The notes: a model not told the origin generated them from the sequence alone. A stretch of 63,856 bases of DNA from an uncultured Alphaproteobacteria bacterium (GCA_944392205.1 CALXVV010000028.1:1-63856); one strand, 5' to 3'. Counted from the first letter of the stretch, positions 2,793 to 63,753 are shown. Program-made: numbers and translations.

Positions 2793-3066
2793 CCCAAACA
2801 AGGCACCCAAAAATTTCGGCTGGTGGAATTTATAGAGTAATTTTGAAGGCGTTATACAACCTTTTGCAAAAAGGTTGGAGAATGGTTCAGATAGAGCGAT
2901 TTGAAAGGCAAAAGTATCGGAACCCAAACAATGCACCCAAAAATTTCGACTGGTGGAATTTATAGAGTAATTTTGAAGGCGAGAAAAATTCCAGTGTACA
3001 AATAGGTACATGAATTTTTCGAGACCGCACAAAATTTCATCTCAGAAAACCTCCAGACGGAATTTT
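2793..3066 (+). repeat. Mosaic cluster of RPE-like palindromic elements: type-A left half, type-B right end and left half, complete type A (2939-3066)
   Basis: 59-bp direct repeat at 2793-2851 and 2923-2981. Core GTGTAC-aaatag-GTACATGA. Segments match the 40019-40146, 55328-55452 and 63589-63753 copies. Confidence 0.85.
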
Positions 3067-4875
3067 TTATTGGTCGCCGATACGCAAAGCCTCAATAAAC
3101 GCGCTTTGGGGAACTTCAACCTTGCCGAACTGCCGCATTCTGAGCTTGCCTTTTTTCTGCTTATCCAAAAGCTTACGCTTACGAGTGACATCACCGCCAT
3201 AACATTTGGCCGTCACGTCTTTTCTCAAAGCAGAAATGGTCTCACGCGCTACAACTCTGCCGCCGATGGCTGCCTGAATGGGAATTTTGAACAAATGCCT
3301 GGGAATGAGGTCTTTAAGCCGCTCGCAAATTTGGCGTCCTCTGGATTCGGCCTCGCTTCTGTGGCACAAAAAGGCCAAGGCATCAACAGCTTCTTCATTG
3401 ATAAGAATTTGCACCTTAACCAGGTCAGATTCCTGATAGCCGGTCAGCTCATAATCAAAGCTGGCATAGCCGCTGGTGATAGATTTTAGTCGGTCATAAA
3501 AGTCAAAAACGATTTCGTTGAGCGGAATATTGTAGACAACCATCGCTCTGGAGCCGACATAGGTGAGTTCCACCTGCTCGCCGCGGCGCTCGGTACAAAG
3601 TTTTAAGACCGCACCAAGATAGGTGTCCGGCACCAAAATAGTTGCCTTAACCATTGGCTCTTCAATGGAGCGGATAAGCGTCGGGTCAGGCATATCGGCA
3701 GGGTTGTGGAGCGTGATGTTCTCACCGCTGGTCAAGTGAATCTTATAAGCCACAGAGGGGGCGGTTGTAATAAGATCAAGGTCAAATTCGCGGCCCAAAC
3801 GCTCTTGGATAATTTCCATATGCAAGAGGCCCAAAAATCCGCACCTGAATCCCAGTCCCAAGGCGGCGGAGTTTTCATTTTGATAATCAATGCTGGCATC
3901 ATTGAGTTTGAGCTTTGCCAAAGCATCTTTCAACAAGTCATATTGACTGGAATCAACCGGAAATATGGAGCAAAACACAACCGGCACCGAGGGCTTAAAG
4001 CCTTTGAGTGGTTCTGCGCAAGGTTTTTTATTATCGGTAATCGTATCTCCGATATGACAATCCCCGACACTTTTGATACTGGCAGTGATAAAGCCGACCT
4101 CGCCCGGATAAAGAGCCTCGACATCCGTCATTTTCGGAGAGAAAACGCCAACTTTTTCAACCTGATAAGTTGCGTTGTTAGACATCATTCTGATTTGTTG
4201 TTTTTTGCGCAAGATGCCATCGTGAATACGCACCAAAATAATCACGCCCAAATAGCTGTCATACCAGCTATCAATAAGCAAAGCCTTAAGCGGAGCATTT
4301 TCCTCGCCTTGGGGAGCGGGCAACCTGTGCACGATAGCTTCCAAGAGCTCCGGCACGCCAAGCCCGGTTTTGCCGGATGTTTCTATGGCATCAGAGGCAT
4401 CAAGCCCGATAACATCTTCAATTTGTCTTTTAACCTTTTCCGGATCAGCTGAAGGGAGGTCAATTTTATTTAAGACCGGCACAATTTCGTGGTTGTTCTC
4501 TATGGCCAAATAGACATTAGCCAAAGTCTGTGCTTCCACTCCTTGAGTAGCATCCACCACCAACACAGAGCCCTCACAAGAGGCCAGAGAACGAGAAACT
4601 TCATAAGAAAAATCCACATGCCCGGGGGTATCCATAAGATTGAGCTGATAAGTTTTGCCGTCTTTAGCCTTATAATTAAGACGCACGGTCTGAGCCTTAA
4701 TGGTAATACCGCGCTCTTTTTCGATATCCATATTATCAAGCACTTGCTCGGTCATTTCTCTTTTTTCAAGCCCGCCGCAAGCCTCAATCAACCTATCTGC
4801 CAGTGTAGACTTTCCGTGATCAATATGCGCAATGATTGCAAAATTACGAATTAGGTCCAGATTATGTTCACTCAT
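3067..4875 (-). CDS. lepA: Elongation factor 4 (LepA)
   Basis: [32 protein letters not shown] and C-terminal [14 protein letters not shown]. Confidence 0.98.
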
Positions 4876-5038
4876 TTTTTGACTTTAATCCCCAAAACTT
4901 CTCATAAAATTATTATTGAAAATACCCGAAAAAATAAATTTCGCAACCTAAATTTAATCAGATAATTTTCTATGGATTGACTATGAAGTGAAAATATGAC
5001 TATAATCAGAGTATAGGTATTATTTGGAGTATAATCAG

Positions 5039-5476
5039 ATGAGAAAGATGATTGACATTGATTTCGGCTCCACTCGCTATGATGAGTTGGTTGAACTGCG
5101 TTATAAAGTCTTACTGGAACCCTTAGGACTAAAATTCTTGGATTCGCACCGCCAAAAAGAGATGAATTATTTGCACATTGGTTGTGTTGAATGCTTAGAC
5201 GATAAATTAGTCGGAGGCCTAATGCTGGCTCCCGTGGATAATGACACTGTTCGCCTGCTTCAAGTGGCGGTAGATACCAAGTACCAAAGAGAAGGCATCG
5301 GCCGTGCCATGGTAGAATATGCCAAGCAGCGCGCCCGTGAGGCCGGTTATAAGAAGATGTTTATTCATGCCAGACTAACCGCCATTCACTTTTATGAAAA
5401 GATAGGTTTTCACCAAGAAGGTGATATTTTTGAGGAACAAGGCCTCACCTTTGCCAAAATGGTGATAGATTTATAA
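5039..5476 (+). CDS. GNAT family N-acetyltransferase
   Basis: QVAVDTKYQREGIGRAMV acetyl-CoA motif and FYEKIGF. ATG at 5039 follows GGAG. Confidence 0.88.
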   Translation: MRKMIDIDFGSTRYDELVELRYKVLLEPLGLKFLDSHRQKEMNYLHIGCVECLDDKLVGGLMLAPVDNDTVRLLQVAVDTKYQREGIGRAMVEYAKQRAREAGYKKMFIHARLTAIHFYEKIGFHQEGDIFEEQGLTFAKMVIDL

Positions 5477-5482
5477 AAATAG

Positions 5483-5503
5483 ACCCCGCAATTTGCGGGG
5501 TTT
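5483..5503. terminator. Intrinsic terminator hairpin between convergent GNAT and ettA
   Basis: ACCCCGCAA-t-TTGCGGGGT followed by T-rich sequence. Confidence 0.6.
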
Positions 5504-5510
5504 ATTGTGC

Positions 5511-7190
5511 CTAGCGCTCAAGTTTTTTATAGCGGATGCGGTGCGGCTTGGCAGCCTCCTCACCCAGACGGCGAACTTTGTCTTTTTCATATTCCTCAAA
5601 GTTGCCCTCAAACCATTCAACATGGCCGTCATCTTCATAAGCCAAAATATGGGTGGCCAAGCGGTCCAAAAACCAACGGTCGTGTGATGTCACGAGCACA
5701 CAGCCCGGATAGTTCATGATTCCTTCCTCAAGCGAGCGGAGAGTGTCGACATCCAAGTCATTAGTCGGTTCATCAAGCAAAATGACATTGGCTCCTTTTT
5801 TAAGCATTTTTGCCAAATGCACACGGTTTCTCTCACCACCTGAGAGCTGGCCGACCTTTTTCTGCTGATCGCCGCCCTTGAAGTTAAACTGCCCCACATA
5901 GGCGCGGGATGGAACCTCTTTTTTGCCCAATTGAATCATATCCAATCCGTCAGAAATTTCTTCCCACACGGTCTTGTTGGGATCAAGCTCATCTCTTGTT
6001 TGGTCGACATATCCAAGGTCCACGGTCTCGCCCAAGCGGATTTCGCCGGAGTCTGGTTTTTCCTGCCCGGTAATCATCTTAAACAGCGTAGTCTTGCCGG
6101 CGCCATTAGGGCCGATAATGCCCACAATTGCACCCTTGGGAATTTTGAAAGACAAATCATCAATCAAAACCCTGTCACCAAAAGATTTACTGATATGGTT
6201 AGCCTCAATCACCAAATCCCCCAAACGCTCGGTCATCGGAATTGTGATATTGGCGGTTGTAATTTTATCTTTGGTGGATTGTGCCAACAATTCATCATAA
6301 GCATTAATACGAGCCTTAGACTTTGCCTGTCTGGCTTTGGGATTTTTCTGAATCCACTCAAGCTCATTGGCCAAAATCTTTTGTCTGGCAGTTTCTTCTC
6401 TGGCCTCTTGCTCAAGACGTTTTTGTTTTTGCTGCAGCCAAGAAGAATAGTTGCCCTCATAGGGGATTCCCTGCCCGCGGTCAAGCTCCAAAATCCACCC
6501 CGTTACGTTATCCAAGAAATAGCGGTCGTGAGTAACCATAACCACTGTTCCTTTATAATCCTTAAGGTGATTTTCAAGCCAAGCAACCGATTCGGCATCC
6601 AAGTGGTTGGTGGGCTCATCCAAAAGCAACATATCCGGCTTTGAGAGCAGTAGGCGGCAGAGAGCCACACGGCGCTTCTCACCACCTGAAAGTTTGGTAA
6701 CATCCGTATCAGCCGGCGGGCAACGCAAAGCATCCATGGCAATCTCAATCGTGCGCTCCAAATCCCAGCCATTGCAGGCATCTATTTTTTCTTGCAGTTC
6801 GGCTTGCTCATTAATCAGGTTGTTCATTTCCTCATCGGTCATTTCCTCGCCAAAACGCATGGAAACTTCCTCAAACCTTTTGAGCAAATCTCTGGTTTCT
6901 GCCAAACCATCCATGATGTTTTCCATCACGTTTTTGCTTGGGTCAAGTTGTGGCTCTTGCTCCAAGTAACCAACCTTAATACCGTCTGCAGCCCAGGCTT
7001 CACCGTTAAAATCCTTATCCACCCCGGCCATAATCTTAAGCAAAGTAGACTTACCGGCACCGTTCACACCCAAGACACCGATTTTTGCCCCCGGCAGAAA
7101 GGAAAGTGTAATTCCCTTAAAAAGCTCTTTTCCGCCCGGAAAGACCTTGGTTAAATTTTGCATGACAAACACATACTGAACTGCAGCCAT
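5511..7190 (-). CDS. ettA: ABC-F translational throttle protein EttA
   Basis: Two ABC domains ([16 protein letters not shown]; [16 protein letters not shown]), SFLPGAKIG and C-terminal PHRIRYKKL. Start moved to MAAVQYVF based on SD spacing. Confidence 0.95.
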
Positions 7191-7255
7191 TTTCATCTCC
7201 CAAAAATTATCAGATTGGCTTTGACTATACAGGTTAAAAAACAAAAAGCAACTTT

Positions 7256-7819
7256 TTAATTGCGGCGACGGCTGATTCGGCCGATTGTCGGCGGCGGCAA
7301 CTCGGCTCCGTTAGCCTGCGCAATCGCATCATCTTGAACTTTCACTTCCGTAATGGTGGCTTTAGAGCCGTTATAAATAGCCTTGGCCGCCTCACGATCT
7401 TTGTTGTTTTTATAAATATAGCGGGCATCATAAGGTTTGCGGGGCGTAAGTATTTGCCCGTCAGGCATTTTAATGGTTCCATCCACATAGAGCACCGCCT
7501 TAAAAATCTCTTGTCTGTCAAAACGGCGGTTGATTTCCGCACACTCAAAAAAGCCGTCTAATTCTTTAGAGATATAGGCATTGGCTTTTTCCTCGGAATA
7601 AGCATAGATAGCATCATTTTGGAGTTTGTCAGAAGGAGATTTGGTGAGCAATATTGCTCTGGCCAGCATCTCAAACGTATCATATTTTGAGGATCCGCAA
7701 GCCAACCCCTGCCCGGCGATTGCCCCCAGAGCGCGCACTTCTTCAATATAGGGCATTTGGGCATTGGCAAAAGCAACCGGCCACCAACAAAAAAGAGCAA
7801 GCAAGCACCATTTTTTCAT
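7256..7819 (-). CDS. Hypothetical exported protein
   Basis: 187-aa ORF with SD and signal peptide [20 protein letters not shown]. Confidence 0.7.
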
Positions 7820-7975
7820 CTGATATCTCCCGTTAAACTGTGCTCATTATATAAGATTTATCCCAAAAATCAAAAGCTATTCTCATTTTTTTAATAAAGA
7901 ATCTAAAAATTAAGTTGACAAAGCGTCTTATTTGTCATAAGTTGCGGATAACTTTTGACAGGTAAGGATAGAGAA

Positions 7976-8101
7976 ATGAAAATTTACAGCTCTTTAAAAA
8001 GCAAAAAAACTCGTGACAAGGACTGCAAAGTTGTCCGCCGCAAAGGTCGCGTTTATGTCATCAACAAAAAGAACCCTAAGTTAAAAGCACGTCAGGGCTA
8101 A
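7976..8101 (+). CDS. rpmJ: 50S ribosomal protein L36, zinc-free type B (not in ORF track)
   Basis: Translation [48 protein letters not shown] upstream and terminator at 8129-8158. Confidence 0.95.
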
Positions 8102-8128
8102 TTTGTTGTTTAGCTTTTATGGTTTTTG

Positions 8129-8158
8129 AAAAACCCGCTGTTTTCAGGCGGGTTTTTT
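8129..8158. terminator. Bidirectional intrinsic terminator between rpmJ and pyk
   Basis: AAAAACCCGC...GCGGGTTTTTT. Confidence 0.7.
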
Positions 8159-8243
8159 AGTGTTTTAAATTTGATTTTCTATAAATTTAGCGCGCAGTTT
8201 GACCTCTGCGCGCATAAACTTTATATCCTTTATCAATAAAGAA

Positions 8244-9668: not shown

Positions 9669-9826
9669 ATAAATTCTCCTCACATAAAAGATAGCACCAA
9701 TGTATATCATAATAAGTTAACAAGCTGTTATTTTTAACAGGTGATGCACAAAAAATTATCACTTGTCAAACAGATTCAAATTTGCTAGCTTCCATAACAA
9801 TATAGTTACCAAAAAAGGAGATTAAA

Positions 9827-10084
9827 ATGAGTGAAGAGAACAACCCTGAAGTCGGTGGCATTGCCGTAGATCGTTTGCGTTCTTTGGTTGAAAGAATTGA
9901 GCATTTGGAGGAAGAAAAGGCCGCTATTGCCTCAGATATCAGAGATATTTTTGCTGAGGCCAAGTCAGCCGGTTTTGATGTTAAGATTATGCGCGCCGTC
10001 ATCAAACTGCGCAAGATGAACGCAGCCGACCGCGATGAGCAGGAACTATTGCTTGAAACTTATCGTAAAGCACTTGATATCTAA
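9827..10084 (+). CDS. gapR: GapR-like nucleoid protein (DUF2312/UPF0335)
   Basis: RLRSLVERIEHLEEEKAAIASDIRDIFAEAKSAGFDVKIMR. Confidence 0.9.
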   Translation: MSEENNPEVGGIAVDRLRSLVERIEHLEEEKAAIASDIRDIFAEAKSAGFDVKIMRAVIKLRKMNAADRDEQELLLETYRKALDI

Positions 10085-10114
10085 AAGTAAGGCCCCTCTC
10101 AAAAGGGGCTTTAT

Positions 10115-11175: not shown

Positions 11176-11259
11176 AATTTTCCGTTTTTGATTGTTAAAT
11201 ACCTTAAACGCGACTATATTTAATTTAGTTTTACATATAGTTAAAATCGAGTAGCCAAA

Positions 11260-17802: not shown

Positions 17803-18069
17803 TGCCTGCCCCTTGTAGTGACCCCCTCCCTCGGGGGTTAAAATCCGCCTATCCTCAACAATTATAAAAAAGCCACCTATACAAGGTGGCTTTTTAGGAG
17901 GGATTGACTCTGCGCTTCGCTTGAGTTGCCTCTGCGGTGCTGCCCTTTGGGCACCGGCATACTTCCGTCTGCCTGCCCCTTGTAGTGAACCCCCTCCCTC
18001 GGGGGTTAAAATCCGCCCATCCTCAACAATTATAAAAAAGCCACCTAAATAAGGTGGCTTTTTTATAAT
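17803..18069 (-). repeat. tRNA-Ser-linked repeat (TRIP/rtT-like): duplicated terminator plus tRNA 3'-end fragments
   Basis: ~93-bp direct repeat at 17803-17895 and 17970-18063, each with a GCCACCT..AGGTGGC terminator. The T-arm copy is split at 17896-17905 / 17986-17994. Confidence 0.8.
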
Positions 18070-18161
18070 TGGCGGATGAGGAGGGATTTGAACCCCCGAT
18101 ACAGGTTTCCCCGTATACACGATTTCGAGTCGTGCGCATTCAGCCTCTCTGCCACTCATCC
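18070..18161 (-). tRNA. tRNA-Ser(CGA)
   Basis: GGATGAGTGGCAGAGAGGCTGAATGCG CACGA-CTCGAAA-TCGTG, long variable arm, GGTTCAAATCC and terminal GCCA. Confidence 0.95.
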
Positions 18162-29201: not shown

Positions 29202-29429
29202 GCACGGCGTTTTCTTTCATAAATGGCCGTGCTGGAAGTAAATTTGTTGACGACGTGTACAAAAAGAGGTACACGAGGAAACAAATTTGCTTCACTGACA
29301 ACCATTTAGGGCACGGCGTTTTCTTTCATAAATGGCCGTGCTGGAAGTAAATTTGTTGACGACGTGTACAAAAAGAGGTACACGAGGAGACAAGTTTGCT
29401 TCAATGACGACCATTTAGGGAAGAAAACG
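29202..29429 (+). repeat. Tandem duplication (109-bp period) of an RPE-like palindromic element in the typA leader
   Basis: Units 29202-29310 and 29311-29419. Arms CGTTTTCTT/AAGAAAACG, TAAATGG/CCATTTA, GAAGTAAATTTGT/ACAAATTTGCTTC, core CGTGTAC-aaaaagag-GTACACGAGG. Confidence 0.9.
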
Positions 29430-39972: not shown

Positions 39973-40146
39973 GGACACTTTTGAGCCTCTCAAATTGCTC
40001 TAGATGCGCCGGCATACATAAAAATTTGGAGAATGGTACAGATAGAGTGATTTGAAAGGCAAAAGTACCGGAGCGTACATTAGAGGTACGTGAGGACACT
40101 TTTGATCTTGCAAATTGCTCTAGATGTGCCGTTATACAAATTTTTA
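39973..40146 (+). repeat. RPE-like palindromic element type B (complete copy 40019-40146, preceded by a right-half fragment 39973-40011)
   Basis: TAAAAATTTG/CAAATTTTTA ends, GGTACA-GA-TAGAG/CTCTA-GA-TGTGCC, core CCGGAGCGTAC-attagag-GTACGTGAGGA. Confidence 0.88.
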
Positions 40147-47504: not shown

Positions 47505-47622
47505 GGCGCGTTTTAGGCAGATAGATAAAGTCAAGACACGGAGCGCAAAAACGGAGCGTACTAAAATGTACGAGAGTATTTGAGCACCGGATTTTGGCTT
47601 TAGATGCTGCATAAAACACGCC
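47505..47622 (+). repeat. Diverged RPE-like palindromic element (type D) between rpsO and pnp
   Basis: GGCGCGTTTTA/TAAAACACGCC, GA-TAAAG/CTTTA-GA, core CGGAGCGTAC-taaaat-GTACGAGAG. Confidence 0.8.
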
Positions 47623-49862: not shown

Positions 49863-49955
49863 AAAATTTCTCCTCAAAATACGTTTAATTCATATATAGA
49901 AAAGAAATAAAAATTATTCAAGCAATTACTTTTCCAAGAAAAGCCCTGTTCTTTG

Positions 49956-53329: not shown

Positions 53330-53343
53330 GAAAGGAAAACACA

Positions 53344-54081: not shown

Positions 54082-54087
54082 TAATTC

Positions 54088-54137
54088 TTGCAATGCAAAA
54101 AACGCTGCCTGGTTTCAGACAGCGTTTTTTATTGCAA
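54088..54137. terminator. Long bidirectional terminator between fabG and the orphan gene
   Basis: TTGCAAT..AAAAAACGCTG...CAGCGTTTTTT.ATTGCAA. Confidence 0.75.
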
Positions 54138-55046: not shown

Positions 55047-55132
55047 AATAGAAAATTTAATTGGTTTGACACAAAAATTATTTTTGAAACTTTTCTTTTT
55101 GCGCTACGTGCAAAACCTCTCCCTCACTCCTC

Positions 55133-55452
55133 AAAAGCTCGGATAGTGGATTTTATAGAGTGATTTTTCGAGACCGTACAAAATTGCTCTAGAAAACCTC
55201 TAGACGAGCTTTTACGAAAAGGTTGATATGTGAGGCGAATAATAAGATTTAAGGGTGGAAGTACCGGAGCGTACATCAGAAGTACGTGAAGACACCTCCA
55301 CCCCGCAAAATCTTTGCCCAGCCTTCTAAAAGCTCGGATAGTGGATTTTATAGAGTGATTTTGAAGGCGAGAAAAATTTTAATGTACACTGAGGTACATG
55401 AATTTTTCGAGACTGCACAAAATCACTCTAGAAAACCTCTAGACGAGCTTTT
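55133..55452 (+). repeat. Mosaic cluster of RPE-like elements: internally deleted type A (55133-55213), type C (about 55229-55325), complete type A (55328-55452)
   Basis: AAAAGCTCG/CGAGCTTTT ends occur twice. Cores GGAGCGTAC-atcagaa-GTACGTGAAG and ATGTAC-actgag-GTACATGAA. Confidence 0.88.
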
Positions 55453-57937
55453 ATAGTTTGGCTGCAATCTCCTCAATCTCATAACACTCAATAAAGTCGC
55501 CTTTCTGAATGTCGTTGTAGTTTTCAAAGGAGATACCACACTCGTAGCCTTCTTTAACCTCTTTTACATCTTCCTTAAAGCGCTTGAGTTGGCCGATGGC
55601 ACCATCATGAATAACCACATTATCACGCAACAAGCGAATTTTGGCACCACGTCTAACCATACCTTCCGTAACCATACATCCACCGACTTTGCCGACGCCG
55701 GTAATGTTATATACCTCGCGGATCTCGGCATAACCGAGCAATTTTTCTTTGAGTTCGGGCGAGAGCATACCTTCCAAACCTTTCTTGATGTCATCCAAAA
55801 CATCATAGATGATGGAGTAGTACTTAATCTCAACCCCGTCACGGCGAGCCATATCTCTGGCCAACGGATTGGCACGAACGTTAAAGCCGATAACCAAAGC
55901 ATGAGAAGCTTTTGCCAAAGAAATATCTGACTCTGAAATCGGACCGACAGCAGAGTGCAAAACCTGCACGCTGACTTCCTCATTAGAGAGCTTGTTAATG
56001 GTACCCTCAATCGCCTCGATAGAGCCTTGAACATCAGCTTTGATAATAACCGGCAAATGCTTAACCTCGCCGGACTTAATCTTATCAAGCATCAGTTCCA
56101 TCGCCGACTTGGCAGATTTAACCAATTTTGCCTCGCGCTCCTTGCGGATACGATATCCGGTAATTTCTTTGGCCTGGTTTTCATCAGCCACAACCACAAA
56201 ATCATCACCGGCAGAAGGTGTTCCCTGCAAGCCCAAAACCTCAACCGGAGTAGCAGGTTCAGCCTCTTGCACCTTTTGTCCGTTTTCATTAAACATAGCG
56301 CGAACACGTCCCCACTCCTTGCCGGCAATACAAATATCACCGACATGGAGAGTTCCGTTTTGCACCAAAACGGTAACCACGGTTCCGCGGCCTTTTTCCA
56401 TCTTAGCCTCGATGACGGCGCCTTCAGCCTTGCGGTTGGGGTTAGCCTTCAAGTCAAGCATTTCTGCCTGCAGCAAAATAGCCTCAACCAATTTATCGAT
56501 ATTAATGCGTTTCTTGGCAGAAACTTCGGCACACAAACACTCACCGCCCATTTCCTCAACACCGATTCCGTGCTGGAGCAAAGCAGTTTTAACTTTCATC
56601 GGATCTGCACCGGGCAAATCAATTTTATTAATGGCAACCACAATCGGCACCTCTGCGGCCTGAGCATGGCGAATAGCCTCAATGGTCTGCGGCATAATGC
56701 CGTCATTGGCAGCCACCACCAAAACCACAATATCCGTCACCTTGGCACCGCGGGCGCGCATCTCGGAGAATGCCTCGTGTCCGGGGGTATCAATAAAGGT
56801 GATTTTATCACCTGTCTTGACCGTAATCTGGTAGGCACCGATATGCTGGGTAATACCGCCGGCCTCTTTTGCCGCCACGTTAGTTTCACGCAAAGCATCA
56901 AGCAAAGAGGTTTTACCATGGTCAACGTGCCCCATAACCGTAACCACCGGAGGTCTGGGCCGCAGTTGATCAGGTGTATCTTCCTGATGCTGAATAACTT
57001 GCTCGACATCGCTATCGGCCACACGTTTGAACTTATGCCCAAACTCCTCAACAACAATTTGGGCCGTATCGGCATCAATCGGCTGGTTAATGGTAGCCAT
57101 AACGCCAAGAGCCATAAGTTTTTTAATAACATCAGCACTTTTCTCGGCCATACGGTTAGCCAATTCCTGCACGGTAATTACCTCAGGAATAATAACTTCC
57201 TTAATAACCTTTTCTTGCGGTTGCTGGACTTGTTGCACCGGCTTGGGCTGTTTTTTCTTATAGCGTCTGCGCGGACCGCCAAAGCCATAATCATCATCGT
57301 CGTCATCATTCATGCCAATGGAATGGATGCTGATTTTGCTGTTTCTTCTTTGCGGCTCAAAGCTGCTTTTCATAATTTTTTTACGCTCGCGCTCAAAAAC
57401 CTCTTCTTTGCTGACAGAACGATTGGACTTTTTAGAAGAATGTTCATCCTCCTCAAAATCATCGTCATCGTCGTCATCATCATAATCTTTAGATTTTTTC
57501 TCTTTGTTTTTCTGGCGGTTTTCAGCCTCTGCCTCCGCCTCGGCTTTTGCGGCGGCAGCTTTTGCCTCAGCCTCTTCCTTAGCCTGTTTGGCAGCTTTTG
57601 CGGCGGCTTCTTCGGCCTCTTTTTGGCGGCGTTCTTTCTCCTCTGCCTCTTTCTGCTTTTGGCGCAGGGCACTGCGTTCTTCTTCCTCTTGGCGGCGTTT
57701 ATTTTCAAATTCTTTAGCCTCGGCAATCAAACGCAACTTTGCGGCTGTTTCCTCATCAATTTCGACTTTGGGTTCAGGCTTCACTGCGTTTGGCGTGATC
57801 ACGCGTTTTTTGCGTACCTCGACCTGCACCACCTTTTTGCCGTCACGGTTTGAGCGAGCAGCATCGCTGACACCTTTAAGTGTCAAAGTAGACTTGCCTG
57901 ATAATGTTAACTTGCCCTTGGTATTTTCTTCTGTCAT
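55451..57937 (-). CDS. infB: Translation initiation factor IF-2
   Basis: [28 protein letters not shown] and KADVQGS. Confidence 0.98.
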
Positions 57938-57970
57938 CTTAAAAAATTTCTCCGTATTTTCATCCTAAAG

Positions 57971-58543
57971 TTATGAGTTCAGAAAATCAGCCAGTTTTCC
58001 AAACTCACGACTGACCATCTTAGACATTTCACCTTTCAAAAAGGCGGCATGAATTGTATTTACCTTATCAAGTGTTTGATCCAACTCCTCGCTTGTAAAG
58101 AGATTAAATATTTTCAGATTTTGCGCCAAATGCACAATTTTCTGATGTCCGTCTTCAGCGGCATCTTTTGCTTCCAGCAGAAAGGCAACCTTATCTTTTT
58201 TCAGAGCCTCTGCCACCTTGTCCATACCGGTGATAAGCACACCGGCCTTTCTGGCCAAAGAAACGGCATGCAAAGCAGACTGCCGCAACAAATCCTCGGC
58301 CACTTTTTCCAAATTTTCCATTGGTTTAACCTTTTGCTTGAGGCTTTTGGCAAAAAGATTAGCAGCCACCGCCTTATGCAAAAGAGCCGAAGAGTTGGAA
58401 ACATAGACCCCCCTCCCCGGCAATTTATTTTTAAAATCAGGAATAACCACCGCATCCGGCCCCACCACAAACCTGAGCAATGCGCCCTTTTCAAGCACAT
58501 TTCCGGTCACGATACATTTTCTGGTCACATCTTCCTGTTTCAT
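57971..58543 (-). CDS. YlxR/DUF448 + L7Ae-like RNA-binding protein
   Basis: RKCIVTG..LLRFVVGPD..KLPGRGVYV and SLARKAG; located between nusA and infB. Confidence 0.9.
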   Translation of the reverse strand: MKQEDVTRKCIVTGNVLEKGALLRFVVGPDAVVIPDFKNKLPGRGVYVSNSSALLHKAVAANLFAKSLKQKVKPMENLEKVAEDLLRQSALHAVSLARKAGVLITGMDKVAEALKKDKVAFLLEAKDAAEDGHQKIVHLAQNLKIFNLFTSEELDQTLDKVNTIHAAFLKGEMSKMVSREFGKLADFLNS

Positions 58544-58611
58544 AAACGCCTCAACTTCAGAAAGGAGTTTGGAGCAGCTTGCAACAAACTGCTCCCAACT
58601 CTTTCACAAGA

Positions 58612-60129
58612 CTATTCTTGTGTAAACCAATGCTCACGAGCATTCATAATGATCTTATTGGCTTCTTGGATAGAAATTGTGTTTTCGCCCAAAATTTCAA
58701 TAAGTTCATCAGCGGCCAAATCAGCCAAGTCATCAATTGTTTTAATGCCTTTTGCGGCCAGGGTCAAGAGCATGTCGCGATCCAAACCTTCAACAGCCTG
58801 AAGTTTATCGTCAATACCTAAGGTTTTGCTTTTCTCTTCAAACTCTTTATTGCGTTTTTCAACATACTCTTTTGCACGAGATTGCAGCTCTTTGGCCACA
58901 TCCTCATCAAACCCTTCGATGTCTGCCAGTTCTTTCAAATCAACCATAGCGATTTCATCAACATTTGAAAAACCCTCGGCAATCAAGAGATGAGCAATCA
59001 TCTCATCAACATCCAAAGCTTCCATAAAGCGCTGAGAACGAACCTTATTTTCATTCTTGCGACGCTCTTGTTCCTGCTCCTCGGTCAAGACATCAATATC
59101 GCACCCCAAGAGCTGGGAAGCCAACTTAACATTTTGTCCGCGGCGGCCGATGGCAATAGAAAATTGCTCTTGCGGCACAACAGCCTCAATACGATTATTT
59201 TCCTCATCAATAACCACTTTAACAACCTCTGCCGGAGCCAAAGCGCTGACAATATACTGGGCCTTATCCTCAGAATAAGGAACAATATCAATTTTCTCAC
59301 CTTGCAACTCGGTAACCACAGCCTGCACGCGAATACCACGCAAGCCGACACAAGCACCAACGGCATCTATTGTCATATCATCGGTTTTAACGGCGATTTT
59401 AGCCTTAGAACCCGGGTCTCTGGCCACGCCCATAATTTTAACGATTCCATCGTAGATTTCCGGCACTTCTGAAGTAAAGAGCTTAGCCAAGAATTCCGGA
59501 CAAGTTCTAGACAAGAAGATTTGCGGCCCCTTATTTTCGCGACGAACGTCCAAAACATAAGCACGAACTCTATCCCCGTTTTTAAATTTCTCTCTGGGAA
59601 TAATTTCATCGCGGCGCAAAATAGCCTCAGTCTTGCCAATATCCAGAATAACGTTTCCAAATTCGATTCTCTTAACCGTACCGTTGACAATGGTGCCGAT
59701 TTTTTCTTTATATTCCTCAAACTGCTTATTGCGTTCAGCCTCACGAACTTTCTGCACGATAACCTGTTTTGCGGTCTGGGCGGCAATACGACCAAAGTCA
59801 ATCGGCGGCAGCTGATCAATCAAAAACTCGCCGACCTTAATTTTGGGGTCATATGCCTTGGCATCATCCAAACAAATCTGGGCAGCTTCGTTTTCAATCT
59901 CGGCATCATTGTCAACCACTTCCCGATATCTGGCCATGCTGATGGCGCCTGTCTTACGGTCGATATGAGCGCGAATATCATGCTCAAAACCATATTTAGA
60001 ACGTGCTGCCTTTTGAATAGCGATTTCCATTGCTTCAAACACATCGTCACGATCAATATTTTTCTCGCGGGCTACGGTATCTGCCACCAAAACAATTTCG
60101 GGTCTAGGCATATTTTCAGTATTTTCCAT
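58612..60129 (-). CDS. nusA: Transcription factor NusA
   Basis: FGRIAAQTAKQ, ARDPGSKAK, VGACVG and AIGRRGQNV. Confidence 0.97.
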   Translation of the reverse strand: MENTENMPRPEIVLVADTVAREKNIDRDDVFEAMEIAIQKAARSKYGFEHDIRAHIDRKTGAISMARYREVVDNDAEIENEAAQICLDDAKAYDPKIKVGEFLIDQLPPIDFGRIAAQTAKQVIVQKVREAERNKQFEEYKEKIGTIVNGTVKRIEFGNVILDIGKTEAILRRDEIIPREKFKNGDRVRAYVLDVRRENKGPQIFLSRTCPEFLAKLFTSEVPEIYDGIVKIMGVARDPGSKAKIAVKTDDMTIDAVGACVGLRGIRVQAVVTELQGEKIDIVPYSEDKAQYIVSALAPAEVVKVVIDEENNRIEAVVPQEQFSIAIGRRGQNVKLASQLLGCDIDVLTEEQEQERRKNENKVRSQRFMEALDVDEMIAHLLIAEGFSNVDEIAMVDLKELADIEGFDEDVAKELQSRAKEYVEKRNKEFEEKSKTLGIDDKLQAVEGLDRDMLLTLAAKGIKTIDDLADLAADELIEILGENTISIQEANKIIMNAREHWFTQE

Positions 60130-60155
60130 TTTTTCCTCGTTTTTTATTGTTACGA

Positions 60156-60659
60156 TTAAAGTTCTGTTTCAGATGCATCTGCGGCAGCCTCGGCCAACAG
60201 TTCATCGGTTAAAATAAGTTTGGCTTTTGAAACCAGCTCATAGGGAATGACAAATTCCTGCCCATCCATATCAAAAAAGATATTTTGCCCATCACCAACC
60301 TTAAGGATTCGGCCCTTAAAGCGTTTGCGGCCGGCAACTTCGCCGCTGGTTTCGATTCTTGCCTCATAGCCGGAAAAACGCTCAAAATTTTCCAGCTTGG
60401 TCAAAGGCCTGTCAAGCCCCGGAGAGCTAACTTCCAAAGAATACTCTCCCTCAATGGGGTCTGCCTCGTCTAAAACCTGAGAGATTGCACGGCTGACGGT
60501 GGCACAATCATCAACCACCAAATTTTTGCGATCTTTGCGTTCAATCATCACCTGCAGGGTTGGATTCTTGGTGCCGATGGTTTTAATCCGAACGACCTCA
60601 AACCCAAGGCCCTCGACCACCGGGGTCAAAAGTTTCTCAAGCGGATGCGCCTCTGGCAT
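60156..60659 (-). CDS. rimP: Ribosome maturation factor RimP
   Basis: DDCATVSR and YSLEVSSPGLDRPL. Start chosen at the GGAG SD. Confidence 0.95.
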   Translation of the reverse strand: MPEAHPLEKLLTPVVEGLGFEVVRIKTIGTKNPTLQVMIERKDRKNLVVDDCATVSRAISQVLDEADPIEGEYSLEVSSPGLDRPLTKLENFERFSGYEARIETSGEVAGRKRFKGRILKVGDGQNIFFDMDGQEFVIPYELVSKAKLILTDELLAEAAADASETEL

Positions 60660-60683
60660 AGCGATTCTCCTAATTTTTTTAAC

Positions 60684-60710
60684 AAAAGAGCGGGGCTTTT
60701 TGCCCCGCTC
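60684..60710 (-). promoter_or_regulatory. rimP leader terminator-like hairpin
   Basis: GAGCGGGGC-aaaaa-GCCCCGCTC-TTTT, located 25 nt upstream of rimP, the usual site of the rimP-nusA attenuator hairpin. Confidence 0.6.
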
Positions 60711-60775
60711 ATCTAATATCAATTATAATTATGCGAACTATATAACAGAAAACTTTTTAAAAATCCAGCATTTTT

Positions 60776-61882
60776 TTATCCATCCTCCAAATGGAGCAAA
60801 ACAGAAACGGAGATAAGAGTTGCAATCAATGCCGGAGTAGACACAGCCAACCCGACGGGGATATAGCCGTTGATACCAAAAGCATATACAAGTTGGGTCA
60901 AGAAGTAGACAATAAACCCGGTAGAGATACCGCCCACAATCAAAAACATGACCCCGCCGCGGCGGTTGTTCGGACGCAGAGCAAAGACAGCGGCCACCAA
61001 CACCATGGCACACAGCAAGAAAGGCGAAACCAGCAAAGAAAGATACCGCAGACGGTGGCGTTGAGCAGAGAAACCTGACATTTCGTAAAAATGGATAGTA
61101 TCGGGCAAATCCCAAAAAGAAATAGATTCCGGCTCCACAAAATTTTCCTTAATCCGCTCTATATCAAGAACAGTCTTATACTTCAGACTATTTTTAACCT
61201 CTGTCGGATGTCCGGCCCTAAAAATCCTAACATCGCGCAAATCAAAAAATCCGTCTTTCAGCGTTCCGACATAAGCCTCGATTCTTTTTCCCGGCTGGGA
61301 GTGGCGGTCCATCTCCAAAATCGTCACGCCGCGCAGCAACAGCTCACCCTTTTCTTGGCGCAAAGACTTGGCCTGCAAAACCATCACATTGTTTTCATCA
61401 ATAGCTTCCCTGATCCAAAGTCCCTTATCAGAGAACAAGACCGCTTTTGGGTTTCTGGTTTTTAGGCGATATTCAAGCGTTTCATACAAGTCATACATAT
61501 TGGCGGCCACCGGGTTAACCAATGTTACATTAATAACGCCGATAAGAAAAGTCGTTACCAACACCGGCAAAAGGAACCCCCAAATAGAAACCCCTGCAGC
61601 ACGCATAATCACAAACTCATTACTTTTGCTAAGCTTCCAAAAAGTGACCATGGAAGCAATCATAACCACAAAGGGAAAAACCATCTCAATGGTTTTTGGC
61701 ATTTTTGTAATAGCAAGCTCCAAAACAAACCAAAAGCTCACATCCTCCCGCCCTGAGGTGCGGCGCAAAAGTTCCACCACCTCAAAAAGCATAATCACGC
61801 TCAAAACCATCAGCAAAACAGCAAAAAAATTAAACAAGATTTGCTTGGTTAAATATCGTCCGAGAATAGATGTAGGTTTCAT
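60776..61882 (-). CDS. lptG: LPS export permease LptG (LptF/G family)
   Basis: ILGRYLTKQ, LSKSNEFVIMRAAGVSIW and GLWIRE. Confidence 0.85.
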   Translation of the reverse strand: MKPTSILGRYLTKQILFNFFAVLLMVLSVIMLFEVVELLRRTSGREDVSFWFVLELAITKMPKTIEMVFPFVVMIASMVTFWKLSKSNEFVIMRAAGVSIWGFLLPVLVTTFLIGVINVTLVNPVAANMYDLYETLEYRLKTRNPKAVLFSDKGLWIREAIDENNVMVLQAKSLRQEKGELLLRGVTILEMDRHSQPGKRIEAYVGTLKDGFFDLRDVRIFRAGHPTEVKNSLKYKTVLDIERIKENFVEPESISFWDLPDTIHFYEMSGFSAQRHRLRYLSLLVSPFLLCAMVLVAAVFALRPNNRRGGVMFLIVGGISTGFIVYFLTQLVYAFGINGYIPVGLAVSTPALIATLISVSVLLHLEDG

Positions 61883-61973
61883 GTTCTTGCTTCTAGAATT
61901 AAAACATAGGCATAAGTTATCCGCAAAAATATCTCTTGGCAATAGTTTTTATCAAGAGGTTCAAGAACATTTA

Positions 61974-62897
61974 TTACCCCAAGCGGGAAAGATAGTTGTT
62001 GATGGCATCGGGCAAAATTACCACAATATTTTTGCCCTCAAATTCTTTTCTTTTGGCCAATTTGGTTGCCGCGGCAATAGCTGCTCCGGCGGAGATTCCG
62101 ACAGGCAAGCCCTCGCAAAGCGCAATATCGGCAGCGGTTCCCCAGGCCTCATCATCAGCAATGTCAACAACCTCATCAACCAAAGACTTATCATACAAAG
62201 GCGGCACAAACCCGGCACCAATTCCGGGAATATCGTGCATTCCGGCCTCACCGCCGTTTAGGACGGCGCTTTTTTGAGGTTCCACCGCCGCAACATACAA
62301 ATCCGGATTACTTGTTTTTAAGGTTGCTGCCGTTCCGCACAAAGTTCCGGCGGTGCCGACAGTGGCTACCAAGACATCAACCTCGCCTTTGGTTGCTTCC
62401 AAAATTTCAATACTGGTGCCAAAACGGTGAGCATCCAAATTTGCCTCATTACAAAACTGGTCAAACATAATCACATTGGGATTCTTTTCTTTCAACAGCT
62501 CTGCTTTGGCCAAGGCGCCGCGCATACCATCTTCTTTGGGCGTCAAGACCACTTCCGCGCCAAAATAGCGCATCAGCAAAATACGCTCTTTGCTCATATT
62601 TTCGGGCATCATAATCACCAGTTTATAGCCTTTGGCGGCACAAATAGCGGCCAAAGCAATACCGGTATTGCCGCTGGTGGCCTCCAAAAACACGGTGTCT
62701 TTGGTGATTTTGCCTTGTTTTTCTGCCTGCTCAATCATTTTTAGGGCAGCTCTGTCCTTAATGGAAAACAACGGATTATAAAACTCGCATTTTGCCAAAA
62801 TATTGGCCTTAAGCTGATGTTTTTCCGCCCATTTGTGCAAATGGAGCAAAGGGGTATCTCCCACCAATTCGGTCATTGAATCAAAGATTTTCTTCAT
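61974..62897 (-). CDS. cysK: Cysteine synthase A
   Basis: VGDTPL, NPLFSIKDR, EATSGNTG and IPGIGAGFVP. Confidence 0.93.
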   Translation of the reverse strand: MKKIFDSMTELVGDTPLLHLHKWAEKHQLKANILAKCEFYNPLFSIKDRAALKMIEQAEKQGKITKDTVFLEATSGNTGIALAAICAAKGYKLVIMMPENMSKERILLMRYFGAEVVLTPKEDGMRGALAKAELLKEKNPNVIMFDQFCNEANLDAHRFGTSIEILEATKGEVDVLVATVGTAGTLCGTAATLKTSNPDLYVAAVEPQKSAVLNGGEAGMHDIPGIGAGFVPPLYDKSLVDEVVDIADDEAWGTAADIALCEGLPVGISAGAAIAAATKLAKRKEFEGKNIVVILPDAINNYLSRLG

Positions 62898-62993
62898 TTT
62901 ATATCCTTAGTTGTTTATAAGCCGCAAAATATGCTGGCACAGAAAACAAGCTCTTGATATTATTACACTGTTTAAAAAACTTGCAATAAAGAA

Positions 62994-63581
62994 ATGAGAA
63001 CAATTTATCAAATTTTGTGGATTATCCCGCTGTTATTAGGGCTCGGCGCTTCAGCTCACGCCGCCAGCCTTGATGACTTGTACAGAGATATCATCCGCTC
63101 AGACAACGAGGGATATTTGCCCTTATTTGTTCTCAACCGCGCCAATCCGGACGCCGAAAGCAAGAAAGAAGAGGTAACCGTCAAACCAAGTGCCCCTGCC
63201 GCACAAACCAAGAACCCCACTGCCTCCCAAAACAAACCGATAAATCTGACTTATGATTCGCAAGCAGATGAAAGGGCTCAAAAGGCAGCCCAACTAAAAT
63301 GGCAACAAACCTTAAAAGCCGTTGCCGAGAACAAAGTTACGCCAATGGAGCTTTCCGAGATTACCTATCGGGCAGGAAAAGACGACCCCAAAGCGGTTGA
63401 GGTTCTGGCCTGGATGTATACCAAAGGCATCGGTGTGGGCAAAGATTTTGTAAAAGCATTTAGACTTTACCAAAAGGCAGAAGGACTAAAAGTGCCAAAG
63501 GCCAAAGAAAATGCCGCCAAAATTTATAAGGCCATGAGCGCCGAGCAGAGAGCCCAACTCCAAAACAAAAATCAGCAATAA
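62994..63581 (+). CDS. Exported Sel1-repeat protein
   Basis: Signal peptide and AVEVLAWMYTKGIGVGKDFVKAFRLYQKA (SEL1). Confidence 0.8.
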   Translation: MRTIYQILWIIPLLLGLGASAHAASLDDLYRDIIRSDNEGYLPLFVLNRANPDAESKKEEVTVKPSAPAAQTKNPTASQNKPINLTYDSQADERAQKAAQLKWQQTLKAVAENKVTPMELSEITYRAGKDDPKAVEVLAWMYTKGIGVGKDFVKAFRLYQKAEGLKVPKAKENAAKIYKAMSAEQRAQLQNKNQQ

Positions 63582-63588
63582 TATTTAT

Positions 63589-63753
63589 ACTCTAGAAAAC
63601 CTCCAGGCGAGATTTGCAAAAAGATTGGAGAATGGTTCAGATAGAGCGATTTGAAAGGCAAAAGTACCGGAGTAGAGAGCACAAAAATTTCGACGGGTGG
63701 AATTTATAGAGTGATTTTGAAGGCGAGGGAAATTTTAGTGTACATAGAGGTAC
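63589..63753 (+). repeat. Mosaic RPE-like cluster: type-A right end, type-B left half, type-A left half (truncated)
   Basis: 63617-63672 matches 2867-2921 and 40020-40073. 63683-63753 matches 2939-3009. Confidence 0.85.

Follow-up and report, generated by a model that had tools for sequence, protein, structure and literature searches.

The window, by which we mean the whole stretch of DNA analysed (63,856 nt of an uncultured Alphaproteobacteria bacterium, GCA_944392205.1 CALXVV010000028.1:1-63856), carries one repeat family at six loci. A sequence-only reading had proposed these loci as a diverged family of hairpin elements of about five types, and all six hold true members of one family, the complete copies being hairpins of 110–127 nt. 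We counted 13 whole or partial copies in the window, all on the + strand and all intergenic. They are given below with their scores against two covariance models, R1 and R2 (described further below), and the z-score of their RNA fold.

2793–2851, + strand: A-type left arm alone with a 16-nt prefix, ending in ..GAAGGCG
2852–2922, + strand: B-type right end (14 nt), GC, then a B-type left arm (2869–2921) ending right before the tip
2923–3066, + strand: 16-nt prefix and complete A-type element (2940–3066); 100.4 bits; z -6.3
29202–29419, + strand: tandem pair of 109-nt C-type units, 96% alike, borderline family members; R1 19.5 bits, E 0.026
39973–40018, + strand: solo B-type right arm
40020–40146, + strand: complete B-type element with the cross-phylum tip CCGGAGCGTAC-N7-GTACGTGAGGA; R1 118.2 bits; R2 33.9 bits, E 2.9e-7; z -11.3
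47505–47622, + strand: complete D-type element; R1 37.8 bits; R2 E 1.2e-3; z -10.0
55133–55213, + strand: A-type 'mini' copy, centre deleted between two short ATTTT direct repeats; 70.9 bits
55217–55327, + strand: E-type element with a B-like tip and differing arms; R1 30.3 bits; R2 on the tip only, E 3.8e-3; z -4.5
55328–55452, + strand: complete A-type element; 130.6 bits; z -10.1
63589–63615, + strand: A-type right-end fragment
63619–63672, + strand: B-type left arm ending at CCGGAG, directly before the tip
63684–63753, + strand: A-type left arm and tip, cut after the second GTAC; 26.3 bits

Repeat copies and their neighbours in the window

The right end of the A-type element at 2940–3066 adjoins the stop codon of a minus-strand ORF (3067–4875), the final bases of the A-type element at 55328–55452 overlap the stop codon of another minus-strand ORF (55451–57937), and the C-type pair lies directly upstream of an ORF starting MNMRNIAIIAHVDHGK, which we take to be typA/bipA-like. 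The locus at 63589–63753 consists of fragments only, and an intact version of its last copy was found at the end of contig C2. Ordinary short terminators are also present in the window.

The apex pattern GTAC-N5-8-GTACRHGA matched the window seven times, on the + strand in every case, against an expectation of 0.04 (100 shuffles). The A-type copy at 63589–63753 lacks the RHGA because it is cut directly after the second GTAC. A blastn search with six window copies recovered 24 merged loci in the 1.38-Mb draft, and this number is a lower bound, since 5 of the 24 lie at contig ends; the proposed density of one locus per 10 kb therefore holds in the window but not elsewhere in the draft. The D-type element was matched only by itself (a single copy in the own genome), and none of 30 own copies lay within a long ORF. 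Copies of the repeat break assemblies of these gut genomes.

Fold, covariation and spread in the lineage

We refer to the strand written as + in the window as the forward strand. It folds to a rod of about 125 nt with a stem of about 55 bp. Forward copies folded as RNA gave long hairpins in 8 out of 8 cases (z -4.5 to -11.3; an equal fold in 0 of 200 shuffles), with one rod in seven of them and two hairpins in the C-type unit. When the RNA folding energies of the two strands were compared, that of the forward one was lower in 103 of 116 copies from across phyla and in all four window copies tried both ways. The outermost 8–9 bp vary from copy to copy with pairing always kept, and the arms co-vary between subtypes. 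Further inside there are conserved purine-rich mismatches (GAGAA opposite TTATA; CAGAT opposite AGATG), and the tip is a 6-bp stem (GYGTAC / GTACRT), closed by G.U in 77 of 80 copies. In the B, D and E types the tip lies between CCGGA and GAGGA or sequences close to them; the A type has the stem and lacks these loops. An A run and a T run bracket the hairpin.

RNAalifold on 16 own copies gave 34 pairs, and compensatory changes were seen in 16 of these. Across 80 copies taken from the window and from 52 loci in relatives, pairing is kept in 96.7% of cells and both sides change in 28 out of the 34 pairs; on this alignment, which was fitted to the covariance model, the covariation score was 0.489, as opposed to 0.172 for shuffles (0 of 500 reached 0.489) and at most 0.126 for slid partners. 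The types are linked both by this covariation and by R1, whose training set was limited to the A, B, F and G types and which recovered the held-out D type (37.8 bits, E 1e-6) and E type (30.3 bits, E 7e-5) and left the C type borderline (19.5 bits, E 0.026); the earlier count of about five types was fair. R1 matched 133 of 150 other genomes sampled from the GTDB family of the window, in 22 out of 23 genera, and 135 of 150 genomes at order level; at class level, matches were found in just 2 of 149 other families sampled. The second model, R2, was built without ERIC, Rickettsiales or the window's lineage, and its E-values come from a shortened calibration. It matched the B type of the window over its full length (33.9 bits) and did not match the C-type units.

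Polarity, gene ends and turnover

Of 27 own copies, 22 have the forward strand on the C-rich strand. The five exceptions are all copies in flagellin leaders; thus, 17 out of 17 other own copies obey the rule. The same orientation was found in 20 of 20 regions of 20 kb from six relatives and in 31 of the best copies of 33 other genomes. In the usual reading of GC skew, the C-rich strand is the leading-strand template. This polarity, which the sequence-only reading had missed along with the wider kinship to ERIC, sX9 and many phyla, was not seen outside the lineage: 12 of 27 copies followed it in Tisiphia, 12 of 17 in a Rickettsia, 11 of 19 in a beta-proteobacterial MAG (skew under 0.05) and 7 of 12 for E. 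coli ERIC, relative to the known positions of ori and ter. Copies were antisense versus sense to co-directional flanking genes in 24 vs 1, 14 vs 1 and 8 vs 4 cases in three samples, so polarity and gene direction are confounded; only 6 'sense' copies favour replication over transcription, and 2 weak-skew copies point the opposite way. The orientation rule limits the possible mechanisms to those that tell the strands apart at the replication fork or during transcription.

The right end of the element often adjoins or supplies a stop codon: a crude ORF caller placed it -13 to +4 nt from one for 28 of 38 copies and, in a second sample, for 21 of 33. Ten of the 38 copies sat between convergent genes. 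One subtype occupies the 5' leaders of flagellin paralogs; six complete leaders carried a full copy, with a conserved promoter-like block on one side of it and the ribosome-binding site on the other, and four further copies were found at contig ends, while 4 of 14 leaders had no element and 2 of 14 only a stump. With copies in most of these leaders, the element may influence how a major surface antigen is expressed.

The A and T runs around the hairpin, the docking at stop codons, the copies between convergent genes and the flagellin leaders would all suit a cis-RNA that serves the host, i.e. bidirectional Rho-independent terminators or mRNA-end stabilisers together with a flagellin 5'-leader hairpin, kept and multiplied by the need of the cell and not selfish. 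Moreover, sites stay filled between species whose flanking genes are 67–84% identical. We nevertheless consider this account unlikely. The flagellin leaders that lack the element or keep a stump, the free variation between species in how many elements, and of which type, a given spacer holds, and the ordinary short terminators of the window all speak against it; in the common orientation the mRNA of most copies would carry the worse-folding strand, which fits poorly with a selected RNA role; and the core is also a dispersed repeat in many phyla and lies in frame in reading frames of Rickettsia and Tisiphia.

Turnover of the copies proceeds by tandem duplication, deletion of the centre and exchange of inner modules. 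In the close relative G191, the site corresponding to 39973–40018 keeps the single right arm and the following 116 nt are missing. In the two closest genomes (G191 and G599), each examined site was filled, with rearrangement as the sole difference; no empty site or insertion event was found at these sites, and no direct target duplication was seen at the copies examined. The comparison thus gave no sign that the proposed mobility is current.

The polarity might also reflect survivorship among old relics that, with no dedicated copying, multiplied through recombination and through tandem and gene-family duplication. Palindromes with the stabler hairpin strand on the lagging-strand template would be lost by slippage or hairpin cleavage, so that one orientation persists, and the forward strand does fold better and sits on the strand expected to be least exposed as template. 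Deletions are common at the tip or between short direct repeats (mini copies, solo arms, tip-adjacent breakpoints), copies multiply with duplicated genes (flagellin leaders; 16 of 20 copies in G003 lie within a longer repeat), and no transposase was found in the own genome. We still regard survivorship of this kind as quite improbable, because it leaves unexplained the copies in at least 13 separate spacers of the own genome, the near-invariant tip across phyla, and the ERIC and Tisiphia copies without polarity.

The mobilising enzymes suggested earlier (Y1/RAYT, reverse transcriptase and DDE transposases) were not found either: Y1_Tnp (PF01797), RVT_1, DDE_3, DDE_Tnp_1 and rve were absent from the own genome, a 93.5%-complete assembly, and the same searches matched control genomes (6 of 14 for PF01797). 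Insertion sequences are commonly missing from draft assemblies, and absent transposases are therefore weak evidence. An ordinary MITE, that is, an internally deleted insertion sequence whose terminal inverted repeats are bound by a DDE transposase, would agree with the size, palindromic shape and intergenic position of the elements, and reviews class ERIC as a MITE with TA flanks. The window family, however, has its most variable part at the termini and its most conserved part at the centre, the reverse of what an element driven by terminal repeats would have; its flanks are varied and its ends are A/T runs or other complementary 8–9-mers, not TA on both sides. Since target duplications were not seen and the three DDE families were not found in the own genome, we hold a MITE to be very improbable.

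Kinship with RPE and sX9, and an indirect link to ERIC

The family is related to hairpin repeats of Rickettsiales and many other phyla, to the Xanthomonas sRNA sX9 and, by an indirect link, to ERIC. It has the imperfect palindrome of about 110–150 nt and the centre that mark ERIC-like hairpin repeats, namely a purine-rich loop, a G.U-closed 6-bp stem GYKTAC/GTAMRT and a short loop, although the A type lacks the CCGGA/GAGGA loops. The apex pattern was matched 127 times in named genomes from many phyla, and 103 of these matches had CCGGA or CCGCA upstream, bases that lie outside the search pattern, and the cross-phylum alignments have in common GCAAGGCG, CAACG, CAGATG on both arms and GAGAA/TTATC. 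R2 recovered the ERIC site on the predicted strand throughout, in all 12 E. coli K-12 loci at E<1 and in 9 of them at E<0.01, with a best score of 34.2 bits (1.4e-7). R1 applied directly to ERIC reached only E 0.2–5, and a sequence-only profile (nhmmer) matched 1 of the 12 K-12 loci (E 0.07); the direct test from the lineage to ERIC is weak, so the case for membership depends on R2 as an intermediate and on short shared motifs. The resemblance to Rickettsia RPE that had been suggested earlier was borne out by real sequence: the apex pattern drawn from the suggested RPE consensus matches named Rickettsia and Tisiphia records, and R2 gave 17 matches in one Rickettsia genome and 32 and 49 in two Tisiphia genomes. 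Rfam at gathering scores returned two tRNAs only for the window, with no sX9 match, while three gammaproteobacterial copies of the family reach 40.8–43.9 bits with sX9 (RF02228), below its gathering score of 44.

Our preferred explanation, which we hold with somewhat more confidence than doubt, is that the loci represent an AT-rich branch, specific to this lineage, of palindromic intergenic repeats of the ERIC/RPE kind: selfish, copied through single-stranded DNA, with a polarity tied to the fork or to hairpin stability, and with RNA roles at 3' and 5' ends. The copying mechanism probably works through single-stranded DNA. The elements would be non-autonomous and copied rarely via a single-stranded form, and a trans-acting factor, not an ordinary transposase of the own genome, would recognise the forward-strand fold and above all its conserved centre. 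Deposition or survival of a copy would require its forward strand to be the C-rich one. As that is, in the usual reading, the leading-strand template, the step would be tied to the replication fork or to the stability of hairpins on the lagging-strand template. Where a copy follows a stop codon, its hairpin and A/T runs may act on the transcript of the upstream gene as a terminator-like or RNase-processing 3' structure, by analogy with the effect on mRNA that reviews describe for ERIC in Yersinia, and in flagellin leaders the element may form a 5' hairpin. That the mRNA of most copies would carry the worse-folding strand counts against such RNA roles as well.

More speculatively, and with little confidence, ERIC, the coding palindromes of Rickettsia, sX9, the window elements and the look-alikes of many phyla might be one ancient hairpin class, whose near-invariant one-strand centre would dock a widely conserved cellular or mobile machinery that copies or protects single-stranded hairpins at the fork, with no transposase encoded by the element. 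The strict polarity of this gut lineage would then be the first visible footprint of that fork mechanism. For more than 30 years ERIC and RPE have served as typing tools and been debated as selfish DNA. If they and the window elements have one conserved strand-specific core in common across phyla, what recognises it becomes a concrete question. The polarity, the stop-codon docking and the flagellin-leader subtype are new here, and the near-absolute orientation rule by GC skew, together with the docking, offers a handle that the classical ERIC and RPE cases lack.

Compared with known systems, ERIC/IRU (enterobacterial repetitive intergenic consensus, ~127 bp) is alike in length, imperfect hairpin and intergenic position, and real K-12 copies share the tip plan (purine pair, G.U-closed 6-bp stem, short loop) and the arm landmarks (GCAGGAAGGCG left, CAACGC right). 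It differs in the TA flanks reported for it, where the window elements end in A and T runs, and in its 12 K-12 copies without polarity, where the window's lineage is strict. Reviews describe ERIC for Enterobacteriaceae and Vibrionaceae only, and two of them treat ERIC and RPE as separate families.

The RPE and Tisiphia palindromes likewise have alphaproteobacterial hosts and dozens of copies per genome; their tip, CCGCAGCGTAC-N6-7-GTACGTGAGGA, is identical to that of the window family, and their arm landmarks are similar (AGATAG..GGATTTTTAGGAG / CAAAATCACC..CTAGAT in locus L085). They differ in being frequently in frame within genes, as stated in the literature, and the frame was open through the element in 8 of 13 Rickettsia/Tisiphia loci, whereas 0 of 30 own copies lay inside long ORFs. 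The sX9 RNA corresponds to the reverse strand of the left arm and tip of gammaproteobacterial members, and its sense is that in which most copies of the window family would be transcribed. It spans only half an element, and its catalogue entry is for a gene and not for a repeat. As a 75-nt RNA it stands in the source paper's table of Northern blot-confirmed RNAs, so at least one member is expressed.

The REP/BIME/REPIN elements are also intergenic palindromes; they too form mosaic tandem arrays, and their fold is likewise under selection on one strand. REPs are 20–40 nt long with a cognate Y1 transposase, and a strand-specific fold with replication-linked orientation is known from IS200/IS605 single-strand transposition. 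The window family shows both of these last features, as would be expected if it were mobilised by a RAYT (HUH Y1) transposase or were a retro-element with a reverse transcriptase; however, its elements exceed REPs in length four- to fivefold, and searches for Y1_Tnp and RVT_1 matched nothing in the own genome and did match control genomes, so that we give this possibility hardly any credence. Finally, a terminator-like repeat such as the pneumococcal SPRITE (PMC3184786) is alike in its hairpin followed by a T run and its position at gene 3' ends, and differs from the window elements, which have a stem of ~55 bp, conserved internal loops, a cross-phylum core and a fixed polarity.

Hairpin copies in the window and the draft genome

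We found 13 whole or partial copies of one hairpin repeat family at the six loci of the window that the sequence-only reading had named. The complete copies fold into the long hairpins that it had described, with z-scores from -4.5 to -11.3. The tip, i.e. the GYGTAC/GTACRT stem with the loop at the hairpin end, serves as a reference point in the list.

Copies and pieces of the hairpin family in the window
2869-2921, + strand, left arm ending just short of the tip
2940-3066, + strand, complete A type, long hairpin
29202-29419, + strand, tandem C units folding as two hairpins, with the tip as the sole feature in common with the family
39973-40018, + strand, solo right arm starting directly after the tip
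40020-40146, + strand, complete B type, long hairpin
47505-47622, + strand, complete D type, long hairpin
55133-55213, + strand, copy with the centre deleted between two ATTTT repeats
55217-55327, + strand, complete E type, long hairpin
55328-55452, + strand, complete A type, long hairpin
63619-63672, + strand, left arm ending just short of the tip
63684-63753, + strand, copy cut after the second GTAC

The apex pattern GTAC-N5-8-GTACRHGA had 7 matches in the window, all on the + strand (0.04 expected); the copy at 63684-63753, cut after the second GTAC, lacks its RHGA part. At gathering scores, Rfam recognised only two tRNAs in the whole window and had no match to the hairpin family. The last 103 bases of the window (63754-63856), which are G+C-rich by eye, stand where the right half of an A-type copy is expected; another contig end of the same draft (contig C2, 183633-183869) carries the same locus with an intact A-type copy, followed by another B-type left arm. 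The two ends may differ through an assembly join at the repeat, or represent two alleles. We also observed a 75-nt direct repeat, 96% alike, at 17821-17895 and 17989-18063, which comprises a GC-rich segment and an ordinary terminator hairpin, adjoins the tRNA at 18073-18161 and is unrelated to the hairpin family.

The draft genome (1.38 Mb, 45 contigs, 43.4% G+C, 93.5% completeness), of which the window is contig C28, contained 24 merged loci in a blastn search with six window copies, 5 of them at contig ends. When aligned, 16 full copies belonging to four subtypes had a mean column identity of 77%, and RNAalifold recovered 34 pairs, 16 of which showed compensatory changes. A covariance model built from the A, B, F and G copies (R1), the check that had been proposed for the family, recovered the held-out D type (37.8 bits, E 1e-6) and E type (30.3 bits, E 7e-5) in the window, and the C type just barely (19.5 bits, E 0.026). 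Across 80 forward copies (window plus 52 loci in relatives), pairing was kept in 96.7% of the cells, 28 of the 34 pairs had changed on both sides and the tip-closing pair was G.U in 77 copies. Their covariation score was 0.489, in an alignment that was fitted to the model and thereby biased towards the structure; shuffles gave 0.172 (0 out of 500 reached 0.489) and slid partners at most 0.126.

R1 matches were present in 133 out of 150 other genomes of the GTDB family of the window (22 out of 23 genera), where at most 23 candidates were scored per genome and the counts thus saturate, and in 135 out of 150 genomes at the order level. At the class level, where each family was represented by one genome, matches occurred in only 2 of the 149 other families sampled; these followed the same plan, with arms that were different yet complementary.

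Position and strand polarity

None of 30 own-genome copies was located inside a long ORF. The right end of the element lay -13 to +4 nt from a stop codon in 28 out of 38 copies of relatives and in 21 out of 33 copies of a wider set, as counted for the gene transcribed towards the element with a crude ORF caller; the corresponding number in the own genome was 3 out of 17, with 5 copies within 7 nt. In gene sense this end reads AAAAG..GTATAAC; in the -13 class the TAA of GTATAAC is itself the docked stop codon, and otherwise the stop codon overlaps the A run. Between copies the outer 8-9 bp vary and remain complementary, and the 13 nt that follow hardly change, a pattern that is the reverse of what characterises a transposon driven by terminal repeats. 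The outer stem could be locus-specific, e.g. a terminator stem of older date or a palindrome that template switching has lengthened.

The forward strand was the C-rich strand in 22 out of 27 own copies (GC skew over 15 kb on either side). All 5 exceptions were copies in flagellin leaders, and the rule was kept in all 17 others, which represent about 13 separate loci. It was also kept in 20 out of 20 20-kb regions of six relatives, 3 of them with the opposite contig orientation, and within each region every higher-scoring match had the same direction. In 33 further genomes, represented by their best copy, 31 followed the rule (skew over 3 kb or less). This polarity with respect to GC skew is new here. 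GC skew is conventionally read as marking a G-rich leading strand, and we infer from the skew that the forward strand would lie on the leading-strand template. GC skew is unusually strong in this bacterial family (0.05-0.29 over 20 kb in the window and in regions L276-L295 of other genomes), and polarity is therefore easily read.

Polarity is, at the same time, confounded with gene direction. With co-directional flanking genes, the copies of relatives were antisense in 24 cases and sense in 1 (the rest of these 38 lay between convergent genes in 10 cases, between divergent genes in 1 and at a locus edge in 2), those of the wider set of 33 were antisense in 14 and sense in 1, and own copies were antisense in 8 and sense in 4. 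All 6 'sense' copies obey the skew; in two copies the skew is weak and comes from a short window, and these agree with gene direction alone. In one relative (G056) the gene at 3067-4875 is inverted relative to the skew and its degenerate neighbouring copy is likewise inverted.

Outside this group, polarity was not seen in Tisiphia (12 out of 27), in a beta-proteobacterial MAG (11 out of 19, skew under 0.05), in Candidatus Rickettsia vulgarisii (12 out of 17 by skew) or for ERIC in E. coli K-12 (7 out of 12, relative to origin and terminus positions). The 17 matches to our cross-phylum covariance model (R2) in the Rickettsia genome fall in three clean strand blocks of contig C1 (71-651 kb minus, 954-1344 kb plus, 1565-1576 kb minus), whose boundaries are not those at which GC skew changes sign; this genome has either an unusual skew or an unusual assembly.

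Turnover and copies carried by gene families

G191 and G599, the closest two genomes, had flanks 90-99% identical to those of the own genome, except for one 80%-identical stretch in G191, and all their examined sites were occupied, with differing content. G191 lacks one 116-nt period at 39973-40146, and at the first locus it has one extra unit of A-left and B-left arms and ends with a full B copy where the own genome has a full A. At the C2:135092 site, G599 carries two tandem copies, and the same outer arm is combined with an A-type tip and truncated arm in G191 versus a B-type tip in the own genome. More distant congeners had other copy numbers and types in the same spacers, G092 had no copy beside the gene end at 55451, and tandem runs were found in relatives as overlapping matches of about 150 nt every 120-130 nt or so (e.g. 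six in contig C46 of G104).

The comparison of filled and empty sites suggested by the sequence-only reading yielded no clean empty site at five loci in G191, G599, G165, G056 and G092, and no direct target duplication was seen at the examined loci. A difference of about 430 nt near C6:26500 was rejected as an empty site, being an unrelated small gene: both close relatives (G599:C58 and G191:C13) have about 430 extra, small-gene-like bases where the own genome has 13. The mobilising enzymes that had been proposed (Y1/RAYT, reverse transcriptase, DDE) did not turn up either, as Pfam searches for Y1_Tnp, RVT_1, DDE_3, DDE_Tnp_1 and rve were negative in the own genome and each positive in control genomes; this absence is weak evidence, since draft assemblies can lose insertion sequences.

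We identified 14 flagellin paralogs in the own genome (e.g. C13:15145-16759 and C2:10049-11794), and the two members tested had both Flagellin_N and Flagellin_C above the curated Pfam cut-offs. The paralogs are conserved at both termini and divergent in the middle, and several stand at contig ends. They share an upstream block (..ATGTGGAAAAGT..TCTGGCAA..AAAAATATATAATC..) that resembles a common promoter. In 6 complete leaders the F subtype, oriented in sense, follows this promoter-like block and precedes the ribosome-binding site, and the same holds for 4 further leaders at contig ends; the outer stem alone was found in 2 leaders and no element in 4. These copies spread with the gene, ignoring the polarity rule.

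An apparent burst of copies in another relative (G003) is mostly the work of a longer repeat, within which 16 out of 20 fetched near-identical copies are embedded. The single copy examined (C11:1165-4289) has this repeat upstream of a gene whose 341-aa, cysteine-rich product shows a signal-peptide-like N-terminus and a weak Lcl_C match below the cut-off. G003 thus probably has a second multi-copy gene family with the hairpin in its upstream region.

Kinship across phyla and comparison with RPE and ERIC

We scanned the named genome collection (596 Gb) with the apex pattern GCGTAC-N6-8-GTACGTGAGGA and obtained at least 124 stretches, a number to be set against about 200 chance matches possible by our own arithmetic. 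Kinship beyond chance is argued by features outside the search: CCGGA or CCGCA stood directly upstream in 103 of the 127 matches listed, and the 116 listed copies with full flanks had a mean folding energy of -66.4 kcal/mol, the apex match being the tip of a long hairpin in all six structures printed. In the 80 titled loci among these 124, the hosts included several Rickettsia, Tisiphia, a Holosporaceae, gut Alphaproteobacteria, Nitrospirota, Gamma- and Betaproteobacteria, Binatia, Acidobacteriota, Myxococcaceae, Bdellovibrionales, Eubacteriales Family XIII, Alkaliphilus, a Prosthecochloris and others. Alignments of 45 and 25 copies revealed further landmarks outside the search pattern, namely GCAAGGCG in the left arm and CAACG in the right arm, as well as CAGATG in both arms, self-pairing via tandem G.A mismatches, and GAGAA facing TTATC close to the base. 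The window B copy has its own versions (CAGATAGAG / CTCTAGATG and GGAGAATGG / CCGTTATAC). RNAalifold on the MAFFT cross-phylum alignment recovered the tip alone, because the arms do not align column for column.

The forward strand folded better as RNA than its reverse complement in 103 of the 116 cross-phylum copies listed (the reverse mean was -58.8 kcal/mol), and in all 4 window copies tested on both strands. Its mismatches are G.U and G.A, and they are inherited features rather than local decay, since the same positions recur across phyla. Two known motifs were tried and rejected: a K-turn fits the B-type tip (a three-base bulge, then G.A and A.G pairs) but neither the A type nor the CCGCA variants, and the GGA motifs for CsrA beside the B-type tip are absent in the A type and on the right side of ERIC. 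The right half of the tip with the left CCGGAG (window 40066-40099 and cross-phylum tips) presumably resembles, in permuted order, the universally conserved sarcin-ricin loop of 23S rRNA, maybe by coincidence.

The likeness to the Rickettsia palindromic elements (RPEs) that had been noticed was borne out. The apex that the sequence-only reading gave for RPE-1 finds several Rickettsia and Tisiphia, and R2, built from 25 copies (Nitrospirota, Binatia, Beta- and Gammaproteobacteria, a Prosthecochloris and other groups) with ERIC, Rickettsiales and the lineage of the window excluded, had 32 and 49 matches in two Tisiphia genomes and 17 in Candidatus Rickettsia vulgarisii, besides 2 in a Manganitrophus and 19 in the beta-proteobacterial MAG. 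A stop-free frame ran through the element on the forward strand in 8 out of 13 Rickettsia/Tisiphia loci. This fits the location within coding genes that is published as a hallmark of RPEs, from which the own copies differ in lying outside long ORFs. PF12574, a Rickettsia-specific Pfam family, had no match in 400 class-level genomes, controls included.

Three gammaproteobacterial copies scored 40.8-43.9 bits with Rfam sX9 (gathering score 44), which corresponds to the reverse strand of their left arm and tip. sX9 appears as a 75-nt RNA in a table of Northern-blot-confirmed RNAs (PMC3300014), and in a survey among the 20 most often annotated sRNAs (PMC9029176).

ERIC copies in K-12 were located with the ERIC2 primer as a pattern (up to 3 mismatches), which gave 12 copies, against 0 for the reversed control pattern, and these 12 sequences have the same plan as the hairpin family. 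R1 did not reach them (E 0.2-5), and a sequence-only nhmmer profile from the cross-phylum alignment found 1 out of 12 (E 0.07). R2, whose E-values are rough, matched the ERIC site on the predicted strand at E<0.01 in 9 of the 12 loci (best 34.2 bits, 1.4e-7) and at E<1 in all 12, with no reverse-strand match at these sites at E<1. It also matched the window B copy at full length (33.9 bits, 2.9e-7), the D type (E 1.2e-3), the E-type tip (E 3.8e-3) and, no better than at E 0.18, the A-type tip. The link between window and ERIC is therefore transitive, as R1 misses ERIC and R2 matches both. Literature searches found no paper joining ERIC with RPE, and nothing relevant in full text for the 11-letter apex strings; two reviews give ERIC and RPE as separate families (PMC10969869, PMC3184786).

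Fold, kinship, position, polarity and turnover are observed here, and the elements belong to the ERIC/RPE kind as a new variant, AT-rich and strand-polarised. They are probably selfish, and their copying or survival would pass through a single-stranded form, with the conserved centre as the site of recognition. They may also act on transcripts as 3' or 5' hairpins, as their shape and position suggest together with the accounts of ERIC acting on transcripts in Yersinia in the same two reviews (PMC10969869, PMC3184786).
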